Source of the DNA: Acidobacteriota bacterium
GTDB lineage: Bacteria; Acidobacteriota; Vicinamibacteria; Vicinamibacterales; CAVVIG01
NCBI GenBank assembly: GCA_046728115.1
Contig: JBKPDW010000197.1
Coordinates: 16,151-80,150 of the forward strand
Direction: 5' to 3'
DNA length: 64,000 nucleotides
A program made the position numbers and the translations under genes. Below are positions 9,592 through 62,974 of this stretch, one piece after another; the stretch's first letter is position 1, and the number at the start of each line of letters is the position of its first letter. A model generated the notes under the pieces. That model saw only the letters and a list, made by a program, of their open reading frames with translations. It was not told where the DNA came from and did no database searches.

Positions 9592-9712
9592 AATCGCCAC
9601 CACGGAGGACACGGAGGACACCGGGACATGCTTCAGTGTGACACCGCGGATCCCGTCCTCCGTGTCCCCTGTGGTGGAGAGCGCCGTAGTGGAGAGCGTC
9701 GTGGTGGAGCGC
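9592..9712 (+). repeat. Palindromic intergenic element, CACCACGGAGGACAC family, copy A (right terminus triplicated)
   Basis: aaaatcgCCACCACGGAGGACACGGAGGACACCGGGA...TCCCGTCCTCCGTGTCCCCTGTGGTGGAGAGCG, followed by two more GT(A/G)GTGGAG(AG)CG units. Lies between nuoC and nuoD. Confidence 0.8.
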
Positions 9713-9719
9713 CTTAGCC

Positions 9720-23812: not shown

Positions 23813-25194
23813 TACAGCTGGCCGAACAGAGCGACGAGCGTCGATTCGTCTTCCGGCACCACGGTTCGAAGATCGAGGACGACGCGGTCGTTCTCGATGC
23901 GCGCGATGACCGGCGGCGACAGCTGTCGTAGTCGATTTTCGAGCGCATCGGCCGTCAATGCGTCCTTTTCGATCATCACGAGAACTGTCGGCAGCGTTAC
24001 GCCAGGTGCGCTGCCGCCGCCGACGGCCGAGACGCCGTCGATCGGTGTCGCGCGCCAGCCGGGCATGCCGTTCACCCGATCCGCCAACGCCGTGGCGCGC
24101 GCGCGGATGTCGTCGGCCGTCTGCGCCACCATGCGCTGGACCGGTACTGTGGACGGCGAGCGGCCGGCCGCGTATTCGTCAAGCGTCGCTTCCAGCGCCG
24201 CGTACGTCATCTTGTCTGCGCGCAGCGCGCGCATCAGCGGGTGGATGCGGACGCGATCCACAAAATCCGCGCGGCCGACAATGATCCCGGCCTGCGGTCC
24301 GCCGAGCAGCTTGTCGCCGCTGAAGCAGCAGAGGTCAGCGCCGGCGGCGACCGTGGCCGTCACGGCCGGCTCGTCGAGGGAGGGACCGGGGCCAGCGCCC
24401 AGATAGCCACTGCCGAGATCTTCGGCGACAGGAATGCCGCATTTTTTCCCGACGGCGACCAGTTCCTCGAGCGTCGGACGTTCGGTGAACCCTTCGATTC
24501 GGAAGTTCGAGGGGTGCACGCGCAGAATCAGGGCAGTCCGATCGCCAACCGCCGCCGCGTAATCCGCCGCACGCGTCTTGTTCGTCGTCCCAACCTCACG
24601 GAGGATCGCACCCGACTGTGCCATCACGTCGGGAATCCGGAAGCCGCCCCCGATTTCGACGAGCTCTCCGCGCGAAACGACGACTTCGCGGCCGGCGGCG
24701 AGCGCGGCCAACACAATCAGCGTCGCGGCAGCGTTGTTGTTGACAACGACCGCGGCCTCCGCGCCGGTGAGGTGACGCAGCAACGATTCGGCGTGCACGT
24801 CGCGACGGCCTCGCGCACCGCGTTCAACGTCGTATTCGAGCGACGAGTAGCCGCGCGCGACCTCTGTCACCCGTGCGATCGCCGCGGACGCCAACGGCGC
24901 ACGCCCGAGATTTGTGTGCACGACGACGCCTGTCGCGTTGATCACCGGTTGAAGCGACGGACGAAACAGACGCTCGAGCCCCGCGTGAGCCGTCGTTTCG
25001 ATTTTCGATGCGATGTCTTCAGCCACACCCGGAACGCGCTGAGTTGTACCGCGAGCAATCTCGCGCCGGATTGCGGCTGCAGCATCGCGCAGGGCGTTGA
25101 CCGTCGCTTCGGCCCCGAAACGAGCTTCGAGCTCGCGGACGGCCGGCCGATGCCGCAGCTGTTCAATCGAAGGGATCAATCTGAGCTCGGACAT
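23812..25194 (-). CDS. selA: L-seryl-tRNA(Sec) selenium transferase
   Basis: PVINATGVVVHTNLGRAPL, VVNNNAAATLIVL, VVSRGELVEIGGGFRIPDVM, EVGTTNKTRAADY and HPSNFRIEGFT match the SelA core, including the PLP-lysine region. Confidence 0.92.
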   Translation of the reverse strand: MSELRLIPSIEQLRHRPAVRELEARFGAEATVNALRDAAAAIRREIARGTTQRVPGVAEDIASKIETTAHAGLERLFRPSLQPVINATGVVVHTNLGRAPLASAAIARVTEVARGYSSLEYDVERGARGRRDVHAESLLRHLTGAEAAVVVNNNAAATLIVLAALAAGREVVVSRGELVEIGGGFRIPDVMAQSGAILREVGTTNKTRAADYAAAVGDRTALILRVHPSNFRIEGFTERPTLEELVAVGKKCGIPVAEDLGSGYLGAGPGPSLDEPAVTATVAAGADLCCFSGDKLLGGPQAGIIVGRADFVDRVRIHPLMRALRADKMTYAALEATLDEYAAGRSPSTVPVQRMVAQTADDIRARATALADRVNGMPGWRATPIDGVSAVGGGSAPGVTLPTVLVMIEKDALTADALENRLRQLSPPVIARIENDRVVLDLRTVVPEDESTLVALFGQL

Positions 25195-25267
25195 TTCAGA
25201 TTTCAGAGATTTCAGAGTGCAGATTTCAGGTTGATTTCAGAGTTTTGACTTCAGATTGCGAACTGAG
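25193..25267. repeat. ATTTCAGA word array filling the selA/ORF divergent spacer
   Basis: cATTTCAGATTTCAGAGATTTCAGAGtgcAGATTTCAGgttGATTTCAGAGttttgacTTCAGATTGcgaactgag. The array runs into the start codons on both sides. Confidence 0.8.
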
Positions 25268-30631: not shown

Positions 30632-31737
30632 TTTATCGCGGCCTCGACGACCTGCCCCGGTTCAATGCGAGTCAGGCACCGGAAGTCGCCGGGTTCGCAT
30701 ACGCGTTGATCGCACGGGCGACAGGGCAGCCCGTGGACCTGCAGTGGAATCGTGGTCAGTCCAGTGGGGCGCCACGGCGCCCAGGTTTCGGGCAGCGTGG
30801 GACCGTACATCCCGATGATCTTCACCGACGTTGTGGCGGCGACGTGGAGCGGGCCGGTGTCGCAGCCGATGTAGAGTGCCGCGCGCCGGGACAGCGCATG
30901 CAGTTGGTCGAGGGTCCAGTCACGCGGGTCGAGCACGGCTGCGCGAGCGGATGGCGGCAGGCTGGCGCGCGCACCGGCGACGACCGTCGTGGCCGTGTCC
31001 TCGTCAGGACCAGCCACTACCACGAATCGTGTTCGATCATCAGCCGCGGCGATCTCGGCGATCGCCCGAACGAAGTAGTCCGCCGGCCAACGGCGGAAGT
31101 GAATTCGTGCGCCTACGTGCACGATGACAAGGCGATGTTCGGCGCCGATCTCGAGACCGCGCAGCCAGCAATCGATTGCGTCTCCTGCCGCTGGATCCGG
31201 CGTGAGTTCGATTGGGTGCGAATCCGGGGTTGGCCGCGGAATACCGAGGGGTTCGACGAGATCCCATTGATTGTCGACCGTGTGGCGCGGTCGAAGTTCG
31301 CGCGTCCGGCCGACGCGAACGGTGTACAACCACGCACGACCGGCGACTTCGTACCCGATGCGGATCGGCGCGCCGGATACCCACGTGAACCACGAGCTGC
31401 GCGGGCCGCCGTGAAAATCGATGGCCAGATCGTATCGGCGCTGCCGAAGCCAGAGCCCGAGTCCGATATCCTTGAAGAACCGACGCGGCGCCTCCGGGGC
31501 TTCCACGACGACCACGTCGTCGATGTTCGGGTTGCGCTCGACGATGGGCGCCGCAAGGGGTTCGACGAGGTAACTGATCGTCGCCGCCGGAAATCTTTCG
31601 CGGATGGCTCGTACTGCGGGTGTGGTCAGGACGACGTCGCCTATTCGGCGAAGGCGAACCAAAAGGATCCGCGAGAGTTGGCGGGTTGGTGAATTGAGAT
31701 GTTGGCGGGTCGAGGGATTGCCTGGATCGGTATGCAC
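30616..31737 (-). CDS. Glycosyltransferase family 9 (ADP-heptose:LPS heptosyltransferase-like)
   Basis: RILLVRLRRIGDVVLTTPAVRAIRERFP...ISYLVEP and C-terminal GCDTGPLHVAA. Start uncertain: the first roughly 20 codons lie inside an intergenic-type hairpin (31674-31773). Confidence 0.8.
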   Translation of the reverse strand: MHTDPGNPSTRQHLNSPTRQLSRILLVRLRRIGDVVLTTPAVRAIRERFPAATISYLVEPLAAPIVERNPNIDDVVVVEAPEAPRRFFKDIGLGLWLRQRRYDLAIDFHGGPRSSWFTWVSGAPIRIGYEVAGRAWLYTVRVGRTRELRPRHTVDNQWDLVEPLGIPRPTPDSHPIELTPDPAAGDAIDCWLRGLEIGAEHRLVIVHVGARIHFRRWPADYFVRAIAEIAAADDRTRFVVVAGPDEDTATTVVAGARASLPPSARAAVLDPRDWTLDQLHALSRRAALYIGCDTGPLHVAATTSVKIIGMYGPTLPETWAPWRPTGLTTIPLQVHGLPCRPCDQRVCEPGDFRCLTRIEPGQVVEAAIKCLER

Positions 31738-31773
31738 TCGGTCACCAACTCACCGACTCACCAACTCGCCAGC
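31674..31773. repeat. GTTGGYG/CACCAACTC word hairpin between trm112-like and GT9 genes
   Basis: Left arm GAGTTGGCGGGTTGGTGAATTGAGATGTTGGCGGGTCGAG. Right arm CTCGGTCACCAACTCACCGACTCACCAACTCGCCAGC. The arms are imperfect reverse complements. Confidence 0.6.
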
Positions 31774-36920: not shown

Positions 36921-36975
36921 CAATGGTTCAGGATCAGTATTAGGGGTCAGTGATTAGCTGTTAGGAATCAGCGAT
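36921..36975. repeat. TCAG(G/T)GAT / TTAGG word spacer upstream of rplY
   Basis: caatGGTTCAGGATCAGTATTAGGGGTCAGTGATTAGCTGTTAGGAATCAGCGAT. Confidence 0.45.
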
Positions 36976-37665: not shown

Positions 37666-37669
37666 ACCG

Positions 37670-37724
37670 TTCAGAGTTCAGATTTCAGAGTTCAGATTGA
37701 TTTCAGAGTTTAGAGTTCAGATTG
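37670..37724. repeat. TTCAGAG word array between rplY and pth (same family as 25193-25267)
   Basis: gTTCAGAGTTCAGATTTCAGAGTTCAGATTGATTTCAGAGTTTAGAGTTCAGATTG. The final TTG is the pth start codon. Confidence 0.8.
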
Positions 37725-38327
37725 AAAGCGATCGTCGGACTCGGAAATCCGGGCACGGAATACAAGCGGACACGTCACAACGTCGGGTTCGAAGTGGTAG
37801 ACGAGCTGGCGCGCCGCTGCAGCGTGCGGCTCAGGGCGTGGAAGTCGGTGGCGGATCTTGCGGTAATCAGCGGTCGAGACGTCATCCTGGCCGAGCCGAA
37901 GACGTTCATGAACAACAGCGGCCAGGCCGTCCGCGCGGTGGCGGATTTCTACCAGCTCGAGCCGCACGACGTGCTCGTGATTGTCGACGAAGCGCAGCTG
38001 CCGCTCGGTCGTCTGCGGTTGCGCCGGTCGGGATCGGCCGGCGGACACAACGGGTTGAAGTCGATCATCGAGCATCTCGGCAGCGACTTTCCGAGGTTGC
38101 GCATCGGCATCGATCGCGGCGACCGGCGATGGGACCTGGCGGATCGGGTGCTGTCGCGGTTTCTGCCGGCCGAGCGCGACGTCGTGGACGCCGCGATTGC
38201 GCGGGCGGCAGACGCGGCAGAAGCGTTTATCGACGAAGGGATCGAACCGGCCATGAACCGGTTCAACGCGGCGGAAGACAACGTTAGCGAAAGACCGGCA
38301 ACAGAAGGACCGGGAACAACTGAATAG
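37722..38327 (+). CDS. pth: Peptidyl-tRNA hydrolase
   Basis: TTG start. (M)KAIVGLGNPGTEYKRTRHNVGF...GHNGLKS. Confidence 0.9.
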   Translation: MKAIVGLGNPGTEYKRTRHNVGFEVVDELARRCSVRLRAWKSVADLAVISGRDVILAEPKTFMNNSGQAVRAVADFYQLEPHDVLVIVDEAQLPLGRLRLRRSGSAGGHNGLKSIIEHLGSDFPRLRIGIDRGDRRWDLADRVLSRFLPAERDVVDAAIARAADAAEAFIDEGIEPAMNRFNAAEDNVSERPATEGPGTTE

Positions 38328-38369: not shown

Positions 38370-38460
38370 TCATTGCAAATTGCAGATTGCCAAATTGCTG
38401 ATTGATTGATCATTTCACAGTTCAATCAGCAATTGGCACCCGGCAATCAGCAACAATCGC
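38370..38460. repeat. ATTGCAAAT/CAATTGC word hairpin between pth and rpsF
   Basis: CATTGCAAATTGCAGATTGCCAAATTGCTGATTGAttgatcatttcacagtTCAATCAGCAATTGGCAcccGGCAATCAGCAAcaatcgc. The stem pairs 38388-38405 with 38422-38438. Confidence 0.7.
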
Positions 38461-39789: not shown

Positions 39790-39886
39790 TGAAAAGTAAG
39801 AAGTCAAAAGTCAGAAGTCAGAAGTAGAATTCGTCAGATTCGACCCTTCGCACGTCTGACTTTTGACTTCCTACTTCTGACTTTCA
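39778..39886. repeat. AAGTCAG word hairpin between rplI and dnaB
   Basis: ATGAAAAGTAATGAAAAGTAAGAAGTCAAAAGTCAGAAGTCAGAAGTAG...TCTGACTTTTGACTTCCTACTTCTGACTTTCAG. GAAGTCAAAAGTCAGA and TCTGACTTTTGACTTC are exact reverse complements. The array ends at the dnaB GTG. Confidence 0.8.
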
Positions 39887-44326: not shown

Positions 44327-45472
44327 ATGATCCGTCCGACCGTCGCGCGCATCGATCTCGAAGCTCTGAAATCCAACTATCGACAGATCGTGGCGTTCGT
44401 TTCGGGAACCGGGGCTGGGGCTGCTGGCTCCGGTCCTGGTCCTCGGGTGACGGCCGTAGTCAAAGCGAACGCGTACGGCCACGGTGCCGTGCAAATCGCG
44501 CTCGCGCTCGAAGAGGCCGGCGCTGATTCTCTCGCATGCGCCGACATCGAGGAAGGAACGACGCTCCGTGCCGCTGGAGTCCGCGCCGAGATTCTGGTTT
44601 TCGGTGCCCTCAGCGTCAGCGACCTCGATGGGATCTTCGACGGAGTGTTGACGCCGACGATCTCGACGCCGGGCGCTGCGCGCGCGGTGCAGGCGGCGGC
44701 CGCAAGGCATCGCCAGCAGGTGCGCTATCACCTGAAGATCGACACCGGCATGAACCGGTTGGGTTTCCGGCACGACAATCTGCGCCGGACCCTGCCTGAT
44801 CTGCTTGCCAGCCCCAATCTCGAGCTCGCGGCCATCTACACACATTTCGCCACCGCGGACGATCCGGAGTCGCCGCTGTTCAACGAGCAGCGCCTGCGGT
44901 TCGAGGGGGCGGTGGCGGTCATCGGTGACCTCCGTCCCTCCTCCAACCGTCCCCCTTACCTCCACGCCGCCAACAGCGCCGCGCTGTTGCGCGATTCGCG
45001 CGTCTGGTACGACTGCGTCCGGCCGGGCCTGCTCTTGTACGGCCTGGTTCCGCCGCCACTTGCCTCGACGCTCCCACTCACGCCGGTGATGGCGTTGACC
45101 AGCCGCATCGTCGCGGTGAAGGGCATTCGTCCGGGCGAAGGCGTCGGCTACGGTGTGAGATTCACGGCCCACGAACCGAGACAGATTGCCATCGTTCCAG
45201 CAGGGTACGCCGATGGACTCGATCTACGCCTGGCGGGTCCCGCCAACGTCCTGATTCGTGGCCGGCGCGCGCCGATTGTGGGCTCGGTGTGTATGGACAT
45301 GCTGATGGCGGACGTGACCGGCCTGGACGCCTCGCCTGGCGACGAGGTGGTCATCATCGGTTCCCAAGGCGCCGATCGCATCGACGTTCGTGAGATGGCT
45401 GCACAGATTGGTACGATTCCGTACGAGATCCTGTGCAGGATTGGAAGCAGAATCGAGCGCGTTTACTCGTGA
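44327..45472 (+). CDS. alr: Alanine racemase
   Basis: VVKANAYGHGAV (PLP lysine), and C-terminal VCMDMLMADVT...IPYEILCRIGSRIERVY. Confidence 0.92.
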   Translation: MIRPTVARIDLEALKSNYRQIVAFVSGTGAGAAGSGPGPRVTAVVKANAYGHGAVQIALALEEAGADSLACADIEEGTTLRAAGVRAEILVFGALSVSDLDGIFDGVLTPTISTPGAARAVQAAAARHRQQVRYHLKIDTGMNRLGFRHDNLRRTLPDLLASPNLELAAIYTHFATADDPESPLFNEQRLRFEGAVAVIGDLRPSSNRPPYLHAANSAALLRDSRVWYDCVRPGLLLYGLVPPPLASTLPLTPVMALTSRIVAVKGIRPGEGVGYGVRFTAHEPRQIAIVPAGYADGLDLRLAGPANVLIRGRRAPIVGSVCMDMLMADVTGLDASPGDEVVIIGSQGADRIDVREMAAQIGTIPYEILCRIGSRIERVYS

Positions 45473-45553
45473 ATCTGGTAATTTGGTAATCGGGTAATCT
45501 GGTAATTGGATTGCTCAATCGCCCAATCCAATTACTCGATTACACGATTACCT
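45473..45553. repeat. GGTAAT word hairpin (exact 8-nt period) between alr and radA
   Basis: Left arm GGTAATTT GGTAATCG GGTAATCT GGTAATTG GATTG (45477-45513). Right arm CAATCCAATTACTCGATTACACGATTACC (45524-45552). About 29-bp imperfect stem. Confidence 0.8.
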
Positions 45554-45560
45554 CGTTGCC

Positions 45561-47030
45561 ATGCCGAAGCGTGCCCCGACCGTCTTTGTCTGTCAGGAAT
45601 GCGGCGCGCAGTCGCCCAAACAGCAGGGCCGCTGCTTCGACTGCGGCGCGTGGAACTCTTTCGTCGAGGAACGTGCGCAGGACGCGGGTGGGGCGCCGCC
45701 TGCTGGACATCGATACGCGCTCGCAGGTTCCTCCGGATCGGCGCGGCTGTACGCGGACATCGAGATGGAGAACTGCTCGCGACTCGGCACCGGCATCGAC
45801 GAACTGGATCGCGTCCTGGGCGGAGGGGTCGTGCCCGGGTCGCTTGTGCTGCTGGGCGGCGAGCCGGGGATCGGCAAGTCGACGTTACTCCTTCAAGCCG
45901 CTGCGAATCTGGCGCGAACGGCCGGGCCGGTGCTCTACAGCTCCGGCGAGGAATCCGAGCATCAGATCAAGTCACGTGGCGAACGGCTCGCCGTGGGCGA
46001 CGCGCCGCTCTATCTGCTTGCGGAAACGTGCCTCGAGCGAATCCTGGAAGAAATCGCGCGCCTCAAGCCCGCGTTGATCGTCGTGGACTCGGTGCAGACT
46101 ATCTTCTCCCTGAAGTTTCAGTCGGCGCCAGGCAGTATCGGTCAGGTCCGAGAAGCGGCGACACAGCTGCTGTTCACCGCGAAAGGACACAACATCCCCA
46201 CGTTTCTCGTGGGACACGTCACCAAGGACGGCAGCCTCGCCGGCCCGAAGGCGCTCGAGCACGTCGTCGATACCGTTCTGTACTTCGAGGGTGAGCGCCA
46301 CCACTCGCACCGCGTGGTCCGCGCGGTGAAGAACCGTTTTGGTGCGATTAGCGAACTCGGCGTGTTCGAGATGACGTCGAACGGCCTGCGGCCAGTGCCC
46401 AACCCTTCGAAGATGTTCCTCGCCGAGCGGCCGAACAACGCGCCGGGCTCTGCCGTCCTGTGCTCGGTCGAGGGCTCACGGCCGATTCTGGTGGAAGTGC
46501 AGGCGCTCGTCAGCTCCAGTTCCTACGGCATGGCCCGCCGGACCGCGAACGGCATCGATCAGCAACGATTAGCGCTGCTTCTCGCGGTGCTCGAAAAGCG
46601 CGCCGGTCTGAACCTGATCGGCGACGATGTGTTCGTGAATATTGCGGGAGGGATGACGGTCGACGAGCCCGCATCCGATCTCGGGGTCGTCGCCGCGATT
46701 GCCTCGAGCGTGAGAAATCGCGTGATTCCGGCGACAACCGCGATGTTCGGCGAAGTTGGTCTGGCGGGCGAAGTGCGCGCGATCTCGCAAGCGTCGCTCC
46801 GTGTCCGCGAAGCCGCGCAGATGGGGTTCAAACGCTGCATCATGCCCGAAGCGAATATCGATCCGGACGCTCGCCTGAAAGGCTCGCGCGACGATGAACA
46901 TGCTCGCCGGAAAGGATCGCGCGACGAAGAAGACGCGCACCTGACCGGATCGCGCGGCGAAGAAAACGGCGGCTGCGAGCTCGTCGGCGTCCGAACGATC
47001 GGTGAAGCGCTCGACGCGGCCCTGAGTTAA
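45561..47030 (+). CDS. radA: DNA repair protein RadA/Sms
   Basis: N-terminal Zn finger FVCQECGAQSPKQQGRCFDCGAWNSF, Walker A GGEPGIGKSTL, KNRFG motif, and a Lon-like C-domain. Carries a 3x11-aa repeat insertion near the C-terminus. Confidence 0.95.
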   Translation: MPKRAPTVFVCQECGAQSPKQQGRCFDCGAWNSFVEERAQDAGGAPPAGHRYALAGSSGSARLYADIEMENCSRLGTGIDELDRVLGGGVVPGSLVLLGGEPGIGKSTLLLQAAANLARTAGPVLYSSGEESEHQIKSRGERLAVGDAPLYLLAETCLERILEEIARLKPALIVVDSVQTIFSLKFQSAPGSIGQVREAATQLLFTAKGHNIPTFLVGHVTKDGSLAGPKALEHVVDTVLYFEGERHHSHRVVRAVKNRFGAISELGVFEMTSNGLRPVPNPSKMFLAERPNNAPGSAVLCSVEGSRPILVEVQALVSSSSYGMARRTANGIDQQRLALLLAVLEKRAGLNLIGDDVFVNIAGGMTVDEPASDLGVVAAIASSVRNRVIPATTAMFGEVGLAGEVRAISQASLRVREAAQMGFKRCIMPEANIDPDARLKGSRDDEHARRKGSRDEEDAHLTGSRGEENGGCELVGVRTIGEALDAALS

Positions 47031-47047: not shown

Positions 47048-47120
47048 CCCAACCCCTAATCCCTTACCAATCCCTACCGCCCAATCCCGCAATCCCTTAC
47101 CCGATCGCCAATCCCCAGCC
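47048..47120. repeat. AATCCC word array between convergent radA and hydrolase genes
   Basis: CCCAACCCCTAATCCCTTACCAATCCCTACCGCCCAATCCCGCAATCCCTTACCCGATCGCCAATCCCCAGCC. It is the reverse-complement word of the GGGATT arrays at 57441-58118. Confidence 0.75.
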
Positions 47121-56617: not shown

Positions 56618-56625
56618 GGACCATG

Positions 56626-56688
56626 GCTGATTGCAAATCGCCAATTGCAAATTGAAACGAGCAATTAGCAGTCTGCAACCTGCAATGA
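56626..56688. repeat. ATTGCAAAT/CAATTGC word spacer between rplK and rplA (same word family as 38370-38460)
   Basis: GCTGATTGCAAATCGCCAATTGCAAATTGaaacgaGCAATTAGCAGtctGCAAcctGCAATgag. Confidence 0.65.
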
Positions 56689-56734
56689 GAGGCGTGGGAG
56701 GGTCGAAAGACCCGTTCGAACCACGGGAGGATGC

Positions 56735-57439
56735 ATGAAGAAACGCGGCAAGAAGTTCACAGCGGCAAAAGCGCAGGTCGGCGATCGAACCTACTCGATC
56801 GAAGACGCGATGCCGTTGATGCAGAAAGTGAAATTCGCGAAGTTCGATGAAACCGTCGAGCTCTCGCTTCGCCTCGGCGTCGATCCGAAACACGCGGATC
56901 AGATGGTGAGGGGCACGGTCGTGCTGCCGCACGGCCTGGGAAAGAGCAAGCGCGTGCTCGCCATCGCCGGCGGCGAAAAGCAGAAGGAAGCGCAGGACGC
57001 CGGCGCCGACGTCGTCGGTGGCGAGGACATGGTGGAGAAGATCCAGGGTGGCTTCATGGACTTCGATGCCGTCGTGGCCACACCCGACATGATGCGCGCC
57101 GTCGGCAGGTTGGGGAAGGTGCTCGGTCCGCGCGGTCTGATGCCGAACCCGAAGACGGGCACCGTCACGACGGACATTAGCAAGGCCGTAAAGGAAATCA
57201 AAGCGGGCAAGGTCGAATTCCGCGTCGACAAGACCGGGATCATTCATGCGCCGCTCGGCAAGACATCGTTTGCCATTCCGTCGCTCGTCGCCAACGCGCA
57301 TGCGCTGGTCGAGAGCATTGTGAAGGCAAAGCCGGCGGCCGCGAAAGGCAAGTACCTGAGAAGCGTCACCGTATCGTCGACGATGGGGCCGGGGATCAAG
57401 ATCGATACGACGAATATTGAGGCGGCGGCGAAGCACTGA
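56735..57439 (+). CDS. rplA: 50S ribosomal protein L1
   Basis: [31 protein letters not shown], and [15 protein letters not shown]. Confidence 0.97.
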
Positions 57440-57440
57440 A

Positions 57441-57490
57441 GATCGGGGATTGGGATTGGAAGACAGCGATCAGGCGTAGGGATTCGGGGT
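57441..57490. repeat. GGGATT word spacer upstream of rplJ
   Basis: gatcGGGGATTGGGATTGGaagacagcgatcaggcgtaGGGATTCGGGG. Confidence 0.6.
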
Positions 57491-57503
57491 TAAAGGACAC
57501 GTA

Positions 57504-58034
57504 ATGGCAGTCACCAAAGCGGACAAAGCCGCCGAACTCGAACAGATCGAGACGGCATTGAAGGGCAGCGAGAGCGCGATCCTGGTGGACTACAAGGGGA
57601 TCAACGTCCCACAGGTCACCGAGCTGCGCCGTCAATTGCGATCGGCGAAGGCGACGTACAAGGTCGTCAAGAACACGCTGGCGAAGCGCGCGCTCAAGGG
57701 CACGAAGTTCGAGTCGTTCGAGAAATTCTTCGAGGGCACGACCGCGATCGCCTACACATCCACGGATCCGGTTGCGCTCGCCAAAACGCTGACGACGTTC
57801 GTCAAGACCGCTCCAACGTTGACGATCAAAGCGGCCGTTGTGCAGGGCCGCGCGATCAAGCCGGCAGAAGTGACCGATCTGGCAGCGTTGCCGGGCAAGC
57901 CGGAGCTGTACGCCAAGCTCCTCTTCGTCCTGCAGGCACCGATGGTACAGATCGTCAGCGTGCTGAACGCCGCACCGCGCGATTTGCTGAGCGTGCTCGT
58001 GCAGGCTGAAAAGAAGCGCGCCGGGGCGAGCTAG
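57504..58034 (+). CDS. rplJ: 50S ribosomal protein L10
   Basis: ILVDYKGINVPQVTELRRQLR...YKVVKNTLAKRA. Confidence 0.95.
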   Translation: MAVTKADKAAELEQIETALKGSESAILVDYKGINVPQVTELRRQLRSAKATYKVVKNTLAKRALKGTKFESFEKFFEGTTAIAYTSTDPVALAKTLTTFVKTAPTLTIKAAVVQGRAIKPAEVTDLAALPGKPELYAKLLFVLQAPMVQIVSVLNAAPRDLLSVLVQAEKKRAGAS

Positions 58035-58040
58035 CGCCGC

Positions 58041-58118
58041 GACCAGGGACCAGGGCTTGGGGATTCGTAAAACAGGGATTAGAGGCGAGGGATTAGTCGT
58101 TCGGATCGGGATTAGATC
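58041..58118. repeat. GGGATTAG word array upstream of rplL
   Basis: GACCAGGGACCAGGGcttGGGGATTCGtaaaacAGGGATTAGaggcgAGGGATTAGtcgttcggatcGGGATTAGatc. Confidence 0.7.
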
Positions 58119-58129
58119 AGGAGAGCACA

Positions 58130-58522
58130 ATGGCCGAAGTGACGCAGCAGCAGGTTGTCGATTACATCAAAGGCATCAGCGTACTCGAGCTCTCGCAGCT
58201 CGTGAAAACACTCGAGAGCGAGCTCGGCGTCTCGGCAGCGGCCGCCATGCCGATGGCGATGCCAATGGCGGGTGCCGCGGGCGGCGGTGCGGCGGCTCCG
58301 GCTGAAGAGAAGACCGAATTCAACGTCGTGCTGACCGAAATCGGTACCAACAAGATCAACGTCATCAAGATCGTGCGCGAGATCACCGCGCTCGGTCTCA
58401 AGGAAGCCAAGGATCTCGTCGAAGGTGCCCCGAAGAACGTGAAGGAAGGCGTCCCGAAGGATGAGGCCGAGGCCATCAAGAAGAAGTTCGAGGAAGTCGG
58501 CGCCAAAGTCGAGATCAAGTGA
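58130..58522 (+). CDS. rplL: 50S ribosomal protein L7/L12
   Basis: [19 protein letters not shown]..., and the C-terminus [42 protein letters not shown]. Confidence 0.97.
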
Positions 58523-58645
58523 TCTGAGGATCTGAGGATCTGAGGATGTAAGGATATAAGGATGTGAGGATGTGAGGCTATAGGTGAGGATGTAAGAATC
58601 CTCCAATCGATCCTCAGATCCTCACGTTCTCGATTCCTCAGATTG
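58521..58645 (+). repeat. 8-nt periodic GAT(N)T(R)AG / RAGGAU array plus inverted ATCCTC copies in the rplL-rpoB spacer
   Basis: GATCTGAG x3, GATGTAAG, GATATAAG, GATGTGAG x2, GCTATAGGTGAG, GATGTAAG. These are followed by AATCCTCC AATC GATCCTCA GATCCTCA cgttctc GATTCCTCA GATTG. Confidence 0.85.
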
Positions 58646-58681
58646 TGTGTGGCGCTCCGTCTTTTCCTCGAGGTTTAACGA

Positions 58682-62974
<4,293 letters not shown>

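Follow-up and report, generated by a model that had tools for sequence, protein, structure and literature searches.

An eight-nucleotide repeat array and its inverted partner in the rplL-rpoB spacer of a Vicinamibacterales-like acidobacterium, with a candidate long-range helix over the rpoB Shine-Dalgarno sequence

The 64,000-nt stretch of DNA analyzed here (the window; G+C content 63.8%) carries on its plus strand the gene run secE, nusG, rplK, rplA, rplJ, rplL, and rpoB, as read from the list of open reading frames (ORFs). The spacer between rplL, the gene for ribosomal protein L7/L12, and rpoB, the gene for the RNA polymerase beta subunit, holds a tandem array of 8-nt units followed by an array of inverted units (Table 1). 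The element is an operon-internal hairpin built from a repeat of the STRR kind, together with a candidate long-range occlusion of the rpoB Shine-Dalgarno (SD) sequence. The host is a Vicinamibacterales-like acidobacterium; the nearest genomes by RplL are metagenome-assembled genomes of Vicinamibacterales (Acidobacteriota), at no more than 80% amino acid identity, and an identical RplL is encoded on three JGI metagenome contigs.

By direct reading, nine 8-nt units run from G58521, within the rplL stop codon, to 58596, in the order GATCTGAG (three times), GATGTAAG, GATATAAG, GATGTGAG (twice), GCTATAGGTGAG, which is one unit with a 4-nt insertion, and GATGTAAG again. The inverted array that follows reads AATCCTCC AATCG ATCCTCAG ATCCTCAC GTTCTCG ATTCCTCAG ATT, where GTTCTCG is a degenerate unit. 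Tandem Repeats Finder recovered the direct array at 58521-58577 (period 8, 7.1 copies, 89% matches, score 72) and the inverted array at 58609-58643 (period 8, 4.4 copies), and a repeat search returned seven copies spaced exactly 8 nt as well as a perfect 16-nt inverted match of 58525-58540 with 58609-58624. The motif RAGGATVT, read across unit boundaries, occurs seven times within 58526-58593; it has 22 matches in the whole window versus 6.5 +/- 2.0 in shuffled sequences, none of which reached 22. The original prediction, made from the letters of this DNA, had described a periodic RAGGAU array of nine units with seven motifs, and this was borne out. All three contigs that share the RplL sequence also share the array, apart from a single-nucleotide change in the 3' arm of one of them (L083; T to C at 58622), and array copy number is stable among near-identical strains. 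An assembly artefact was rejected because these contigs are independent assemblies.

Four start-stop mini-ORFs were noticed within the array: ATG-TAA at 58546-58551, ATG-TGA at 58562-58567 and at 58570-58575, and ATG-TAA at 58590-58595. Three sit 8 nt after the GAGG or AAGG of an earlier unit, so that the 8-nt period is also a good SD-to-AUG spacing, and the fourth lies 5 nt after AGG. Among the related loci (denoted by L numbers throughout), one mini-ORF of this type is present in L086 and none in L087.

The direct array is predicted to be one arm of a long imperfect RNA hairpin, whose arms are the tandem 8-nt unit and its complement. The segment 58519-58650 folds with a minimum free energy (MFE) of -55.3 kcal/mol into 44 pairs, six of them G.U, with internal loops, and the fold of 58500-58700 has z = -3.15 against dinucleotide shuffles; the MFE structure makes up 0.1% of the ensemble. 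As had been proposed, the GAGGAT units find their pairing partners in the inverted ATCCTC units of this fold. The antisense strand of the same segment reaches -44.5 kcal/mol, compared with -55.3 kcal/mol for the sense strand, and the same sense-strand bias is seen in the rplL-rpoB hairpins of four relatives (L086, L087, L091, and L092). The arms are unequal, with nine 5' units and four to five 3' units, and therefore about four of the 5' units would be looped out or paired in alternative registers.

In Escherichia coli, the rplL-rpoB spacer contains an intercistronic attenuator and an RNase III processing site. An attenuator hairpin had been proposed for the present spacer, and this idea stands in part: a hairpin is predicted at the position of the attenuator and processing site of other bacteria, but no canonical terminator, a stem followed directly by a U run, was detected in the scan of the window. 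The tail after the stem is AUUGUGUGUGG, with no U run within 0-2 nt of the stem. Crude consensus scans of 57400-58800, covering sigma-70-type promoters only, found no promoter-like or terminator-like sites, and Rfam (gathering thresholds across the whole window, E <= 10 in 57400-58800) turned up nothing but tRNAs and chance microRNA-like matches to the palindrome. The predicted 44-pair structure provides the near-continuous double-stranded RNA of at least about 20 bp that RNase III requires, and RNase III would probably act on this stem of about 44 bp, as it does in E. coli. The element resembles the E. coli attenuator in its intergenic position and, by prediction, as a structured RNA that would lower or uncouple rpoBC expression relative to rplJL. 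It differs in having no sequence or Rfam similarity and no stem with a U tract in the window, and in its arms of tandem 8-mers, which are enclosed by a predicted helix, one strand of it lying within rplL and the other overlapping the rpoB SD sequence.

This closing helix would join the 3' coding end of rplL to the rpoB leader. In the fold of 58480-58700, two helices (H1 and H2) together surround the entire hairpin, the H1 core pairs have probabilities of 0.83-1.0 in the window, and the first three bases of the SD sequence have probabilities of being unpaired of no more than 0.03. Within the leader box UGGCGCUCCGUCUUUUCCUCGAGGUUU lie the 3' strands of both helices, along with a U-rich tract. 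A box of the form (G)AGCGCUC-N-U-rich-YYUCGAGGU upstream of the rpoB ATG is common to 13 relatives despite their differing hairpins. When the flanks (rplL end plus leader) of the box-bearing sequences were cofolded, all 13 gave energies from -21.5 to -31.3 kcal/mol; in the full-length context, in which the strands lie 135-236 nt apart, five to seven H1 core pairs formed in 13 of 13 at probabilities of 0.8-1.0 (at least 0.9 in most), and the first three SD bases were unpaired with probabilities of at most 0.18. The closing helix is predicted in the folds of the window, L086, and L087 alike. Against shuffled leaders, duplex z values range from -0.2 to -3.1 in the box-bearing clade and scatter around zero (+0.8 to -1.9) in relatives without the box.

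Covariation in H1 was assessed on an alignment of the concatenated flanks of the 13 sequences, with 500 shuffles and with the partner strand slid by 1-3 columns as a control. For H1, 95.4% of the alignment cells are paired, versus no more than 74% in the slid controls. One H1 pair, formed by the third position of a Glu codon with a leader base, shows no mismatches: nine sequences have G-C and the other four A-U. A second H1 pair shows one additional double change. Neither the covariation score nor the count of doubly changed cells was matched in any of the 500 shuffles. Across these sequences the rplL coding end keeps its complementarity to the rpoB SD sequence, with covariation, as expected of SD occlusion; the independent events behind this may be few. 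A segment equivalent to H2 forms in the cofolds of all 13 relatives, in a variable register.

Other arrangements around the rpoB SD sequence were observed in further relatives. In the lineage of L099, L101, and L104, rplL has GAC at the Glu codon position, and a separate leader element, UUCGUCGG, lies just upstream of the SD sequence and is complementary to CGACGAA; by its sequence, this element would be compatible with the SD-covering principle of H1 in a different geometry. In L094, L095, and L092, a local hairpin, CCUCU-UUUCC-AGAGG, lies over the rpoB SD sequence instead (45 nt upstream of the ATG in L094 and L095).

Among the relatives, the position and build of the rplL-rpoB hairpin are kept, and the unit sequence is not. 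GAGGAT units are limited to the window, L086, L087, and the truncated L085. L086 (RplL 91% identical in amino acids) reads AATCTAAG GATCTAAG GATGTGAG GATTTGAG GATCTG followed by five inverted units, and L087 (85%) has GATTTGAG-type units and four inverted units, then UCUUUUU. Elsewhere the position is taken by GGCTGAN units paired with AGCCATTG units (L165, 95%), GCGAAGG paired with CCGTCGC (L166, 94%), GGCTYYG units followed by GUUUUU (L168, 92%), GGGRCYG units followed by UUUUU (L172, 89%), GGGCTSAG units (L088 and L091, 82-83%), GTCTGGT units (L093, 80%), or TTCGAAC and AAGTCAG arms around a shared core (L092 and L095, 83-85%). L171 (88%) has a compact GC hairpin, GGGGCGGAG-CUUGC-CUCCGCCCC, the more distant L004, L084, L100, L099, L101, and L104 have GC hairpins, several with T runs, and the spacer of L002 is only 35 nt long. 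The rplL DNA of the relatives is only 82-88% identical to that of the window, and therefore the turnover of units is at the genus or family scale and not at the strain scale. A common central core, GAGGAACGCNCTGACGC...CATCT...TTTT, was seen at 1665-1815 of L092 and 3540-3690 of L095; the arms flanking it differ (TTCGAAC versus AAGTCAG), which looks like arm replacement around a fixed center.

The rplL-rpoB element is one of a class of repeat-armed palindromes spread through the spacers of the Vicinamibacterales lineage, whose unit sequence would be free to change. A census of arrays with a period of 6-9 and at least 3.5 copies, in loci sampled around the same rplL locus, gave 15.5 arrays per 100 kb in Vicinamibacterales-like sequences; the density was 4.9 elsewhere in the Acidobacteriota and 1.25 outside this phylum, where period-6 coding repeats predominate. 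For about half of the arrays, a complementary partner array lies no more than 160 nt away. In the window, a stringent periodicity scan found four arrays, all four intergenic, compared with none in 20 shuffles, and Tandem Repeats Finder and visual inspection added about eight more. Of the intergenic 7-8-nt arrays noted elsewhere in the window, most have an inverted partner with which they are predicted to form a hairpin. A strictly periodic array had been regarded as unexpected in this spacer; this holds for bacteria in general, but in the Vicinamibacterales-like lineage they are standard. No sequence is common to the hairpins of different loci, and TCACCAAC is a further locus-specific unit in the window; among the units that do recur, GGGATT is found at three loci and ATTGCAA at two, and the three GGGATT clusters hold 12 of the window's 32 copies of this motif. 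Of 16 repeat-armed hairpins read in the direction of the genes, 14 have a paired 5' strand rich in G (skew +0.24 to +0.73), two are neutral, and none is C-rich. This G-rich-first orientation fits a constraint tied to the direction of transcription, possibly because with the reverse order the first single-stranded RNA to emerge would be a C-rich, G-poor arm.

Some regularities among the units were noticed in passing. Many share a TCAG or CTGA core. Conservation is higher in the GGGATT family than in the rplL-rpoB units, and its members are similar to the Nostoc GGGGATT and Xanthomonas GGGAATC repeats; strict tandem versions lie upstream of rplL in relatives (GGGATTA in L164; GGATTGA, 6.7 copies, at 3052-3098 of L090).

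Table 1 Features of the rplL-rpoB locus and other repeat arrays in the window (names of genes flanking the other spacers were assigned from Pfam)
Feature	Positions	Strand	Location or remarks
rplL (L7/L12, 130 aa)	58130-58522	+	ORF
H1, 5' strand UUCGAGGAAG	58487-58496	+	rplL codons Phe-Glu-Glu-Val; predicted to pair with 58663-58672 (MFE and ensemble)
H2, 5' strand CGGCGCCA	58498-58505	+	rplL codons Gly-Ala-Lys; predicted to pair with 58650-58659 (UGGCGC..CG) (MFE)
rplL stop codon TGA	58520-58522	+	second base is the array start
Direct array, consensus GATSTRAG (RAGGAUVU across unit boundaries)	58521-58596	+	predicted hairpin 5' arm plus about four surplus units
Apical loop GUAAGA	58592-58597	+	predicted in MFE structures
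Inverted array, 4-5 AUCCUC(A) units	58598-58645	+	predicted hairpin 3' arm; inverted-repeat pairs
Conserved rpoB leader box UGGCGCUCCGUCUUUUCCUCGAGGUUU	58650-58676	+	near reverse complement of rplL 3' coding end
H1, 3' strand UUUCCUCGAG	58663-58672	+	rpoB leader; covers three of four SD bases
Presumed rpoB SD sequence GAGG	58670-58673	+	8 nt upstream of ATG 58682; read from the sequence
rpoB (1430 aa)	58682-62974	+	ORF list; Pfam RNA_pol_Rpb2 domains recorded on the L168 orthologue
ATTTCAG	25193-25258		upstream of selA; no inverted partner
GTTGGCGG with CACCAAC	31673-31771		
Loose RTYAG pattern	36921-36975		prs-rplY spacer
GTTCAGA, 8 copies	37669-37725		rplY-pth spacer; no inverted partner
ATTGCAA hairpin	38372-38460		pth-rpsF spacer
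AAGTCAG with CTGACTT	39794-39885 (listed also from 39778)		rplI-dnaB spacer
AATCTGGT with ATTACNCG	45472-45555		alr-radA spacer
GGGATT cluster, 5 copies	47058-47115	-	spacer between convergent genes
ATTGCAA-type hairpin	56625-56690		rplK-rplA spacer
GGGATT cluster, 3 copies	57446-57484		rplA-rplJ spacer
GGGATT cluster, 4 copies	58060-58113		rplJ-rplL spacer

Tandem repeats of comparable unit length are known from other bacteria. Intergenic heptamer simple sequence repeats (SSRs) include the cyanobacterial STRR, the Xanthomonas GGGAATC and Nostoc GGGGAYT repeats (PMC4692102), and the TAACTGA repeat of Beggiatoaceae, for which CsrA, S1, and Csp were proposed, untried, as binders (PMC4679880). 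The arrays described here likewise consist of tandem 7-8-nt units, are strongly intergenic, lie at many loci per genome, and vary in length and sequence between related strains, and some inverted pairs can form stem-loops. Unlike the STRR and heptamer SSRs, which use one or a few fixed units genome-wide, the unit here differs by locus and lineage, and about half of the arrays carry their own complementary partner array. We found no description of such repeats in Acidobacteria or Vicinamibacteria in the literature. The REP and BIME elements are also short operon-internal intergenic palindromes, thought to be mRNA stabilizers, terminators, or structural elements (PMC3733652). REP elements are, however, dispersed copies of one sequence mobilized by RAYT, whereas the window hairpins are locus-specific tandem repeats, and no palindrome dispersed in many copies was found among them. 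A REP-type mobile element was thus rejected as an identity of the present element, the loci sharing no sequence.

The reading we favor, to which we give about an even chance, is that the hairpin would act as a sequence-free clamp, built by slippage, that closes a long-range helix coupling or attenuating rpoB relative to rplL. The periodicity most likely arose by replication slippage followed by copying between the arms through template switching. The rplL end (UUCGAGGAAG..CGGCGCC) would pair with the rpoB leader (GGCGCUCC..UUUCCUCGAG), hiding three of the four SD bases, and the hairpin would clamp the two flanks together independently of its own sequence. Ribosomes finishing rplL would open the helix, so that rpoB initiation would be coupled to, and held below, rplL translation. 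With its U-rich tract, the closing helix may also allow partial termination while rplL is untranslated, and the stem could be processed as a natural RNase III substrate. Long-range SD occlusion with translational coupling is known from the coat and replicase genes of phage MS2 and from within E. coli rplJL. As in those systems, an upstream coding sequence would pair with a downstream ribosome-binding site and be opened by upstream translation; unlike them, the present case is a prediction, with 135-236 nt between its strands and a hypervariable repeat-armed hairpin as the bridge.

Several observations weigh against this reading. Most of the covariation comes from a single pair, and its four A-U sequences may belong to one clade, so that possibly one event is being counted. 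The palindrome CUCGAG in H1 and the U-rich tract raise the chance of fortuitous complementarity, and a slide of -1 still leaves 74% of cells paired. The 5' strand of H1 is conserved anyway as protein-coding sequence. For H2, 52% of cells are paired in the ungapped alignment, which points to no fixed register. The scan of the window, as described above, gave no canonical terminator. The sense-strand fold bias is not general to the arrays, being absent in the pth-rpsF, rplI-dnaB, and rplK-rplA hairpins, and the arrays at 37669-37725 and 25193-25258 have no inverted partner at all; therefore arrays arise without any hairpin function. Finally, almost all genes of the window lie on the plus strand, which confounds the G-rich-first orientation with the direction of replication.

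The array could instead be a neutral by-product, a microsatellite palindrome expanded by slippage and without function itself, with only the flanking box and the SD sequence being functional. We consider this doubtful. In its favor, neither unit sequence nor copy number is conserved, L171 manages with a short GC hairpin and L002 with its 35-nt spacer, direct-only arrays exist, the three identical GATCTGAG units beside the stop codon look like a recent expansion, and the overrepresentation of bacterial heptameric SSRs has been ascribed to polymerase slippage, the origin proposed for them (PMC4692102). Neutrality would not readily account for the retention of some hairpin at this position in nearly all relatives, given rplL DNA identities of only 82-88%, for the better folding of the rplL-rpoB hairpins on the sense strand through G.U pairs, for the G-rich arm coming first in 14 of 16 hairpins, or for the identical array in three independent near-identical strains. 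Somewhat less probable still is a plain attenuator, an RNase III hairpin, or both, comparable to the E. coli rplL-rpoB element and without long-range SD coupling. The hairpin occupies the place where E. coli has an attenuator and an RNase III site, the stem length of about 44 bp would suit RNase III, a U run directly follows the periodic hairpin in L168, L172, and L087, and a GC hairpin followed by a T run is found in the distant relatives L004, L084, and L100. Such an element is at odds with the AUUGUGUGUGG tail and the terminator scan of the window, and it would leave unexplained why the leader box is complementary to, and covaries with, the rplL coding end. An element acting at the DNA level, whether a cruciform or slipped strand, an array for nucleoid or replication proteins, or a phase-variable contingency locus, appears very unlikely. 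As DNA, several of the window's other arrays are near-perfect palindromes with no sense-strand bias, the orientation bias could stem from replication rather than transcription, and four GATC sites lie in the first units, but copy number is invariant among the three near-identical strains, the G.U pairs make the sense RNA about 11 kcal/mol more stable than the antisense here, and no single DNA-binding specificity fits units that vary from locus to locus.

Two further explanations take the sequence of the units at face value. The original prediction had raised the possibility of a sponge for a GGA-motif protein such as CsrA or RsmA. The RAGGAUGU repeats would bind this protein, either as a sponge that titrates it or as a platform through which it controls rpoB. 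The CsrA consensus from systematic evolution of ligands by exponential enrichment is ARGGAUGU. The resemblance of the units to it is not in dispute, several of the seven RAGGAUVU motifs matching it, and like the CsrB and RsmZ sponge RNAs the array reiterates A/G-GGA-UG motifs. About four 5' units of the window have no partner in the 3' arm, and one GGA is largely exposed; the probabilities of being unpaired for the seven array GGAs are 0.40, 0.06, 0.37, 0.84, 0.37, 0.00, and 0.00. L090 has further GAGGAT(T)-type units in its rplK-rplA and rplJ-rplL spacers, and CsrA together with FliW has been reported in some Acidobacteria (PMC4682653). Nevertheless, a sequence-specific CsrA sponge is unlikely because GAGGAT units occur in only three or four lineages and the GGAs are buried in two of them: every array GGA is paired in L086 (probability of being unpaired of at most 0.01) and most are in L087. 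CsrB and RsmZ are independent small RNA genes with conserved GGAs in loops, whereas the GGAs here lie mostly in stems, within an operon and with no promoter or terminator predicted by the crude consensus scans for a separate small RNA. They are not conserved, the units of L165, L166, L168, L172, L088, L091, and L093 being different ones without GGA and L171 having a plain hairpin. Other spacers of the same genome hold arrays of like build without GGA (GTTCAGA, AAGTCAG, AATCTGGT, and ATTGCAA), and Rfam gave no match. A tblastn search with the E. coli and Bacillus subtilis CsrA gave no match in the window and 172 loci (1.64 Mb), which is weak evidence and silent on the rest of the genome, and csrA is present in only about 30% of bacterial genomes (PMC13443453). 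Two of the three outcomes named beforehand as telling against a sponge were thus found, namely unrelated hairpins in relatives and buried GGAs in L086 and L087; a CsrA/RsmA sponge or platform is exceedingly improbable, and the GGA content of the array is incidental. The suggestion that the SD-like GAGG and AAGG units, with their ATG-stop mini-ORFs, capture 30S subunits as ribosome standby or decoy sites fares no better. The units are indeed SD-like, four start-stop pairs are spaced after GAGG, AAGG, or AGG, and the real rpoB SD sequence is also GAGG, but the feature is not conserved (the L087 array has no ATG, and the units of other relatives are not SD-like) and most units are base-paired, which leaves it a very slim chance.

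Other observations were made in the surrounding sequence. Rfam gave no L1 or L10 leader in the sequences preceding rplA and rplJ (56618-56734 and 57440-57503 of the window); the rplA-rplJ spacer is only 64 nt long and consists mostly of GGGATT motifs. In the rplJ-rplL spacer, GGATTAGAT resembles the 790-loop sequence of 16S rRNA and was set aside as a probable coincidence. RpoB has a Cys-rich N-terminal insertion at about 58928-59090 (residues ~83-137; CKCGK...CSACG...CPRCG...CDICG) that resembles a double zinc ribbon, and its start, through CKCGK, is visible in L002 too. Two longer repeats were also seen, a 33-nt repeat (2.9 copies, 46869-46964) within a radA-like ORF, which would encode an 11-amino-acid repeat, and the 15-nt repeat GTGGAGAGCGCCGTA (2.4 copies, 9674-9709) in the 9622-9719 spacer.

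A broader and more tentative proposal, which we think unlikely, is that Vicinamibacterales, and to a lesser extent other Acidobacteriota, may have genome-wide self-renewing repeat-armed hairpins that arise by a lineage-specific slippage and template-switch process and are selected as sequence-free modules with the G-rich arm transcribed first, the one between rplL and rpoB clamping a helix that would tie rpoB initiation, read-through, or both to translation of the rplL end, which would be a previously undescribed means of setting the ratio of RNA polymerase to ribosomal proteins. Should the clamp model fail, the element would be an ordinary operon-internal hairpin that became periodic through slippage. 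If it is true, a long-range helix would link production of the RNA polymerase beta subunit to the translation of L7/L12, and repeated GGA or SD-like motifs in genomes of this kind should not be called protein-binding sponges without comparative evidence. Vicinamibacterales are among the most abundant soil bacteria and genetically almost unstudied, and their operons would be punctuated by fast-evolving hairpins constrained in structure only, which would offer a natural system for RNA structure kept under sequence turnover.

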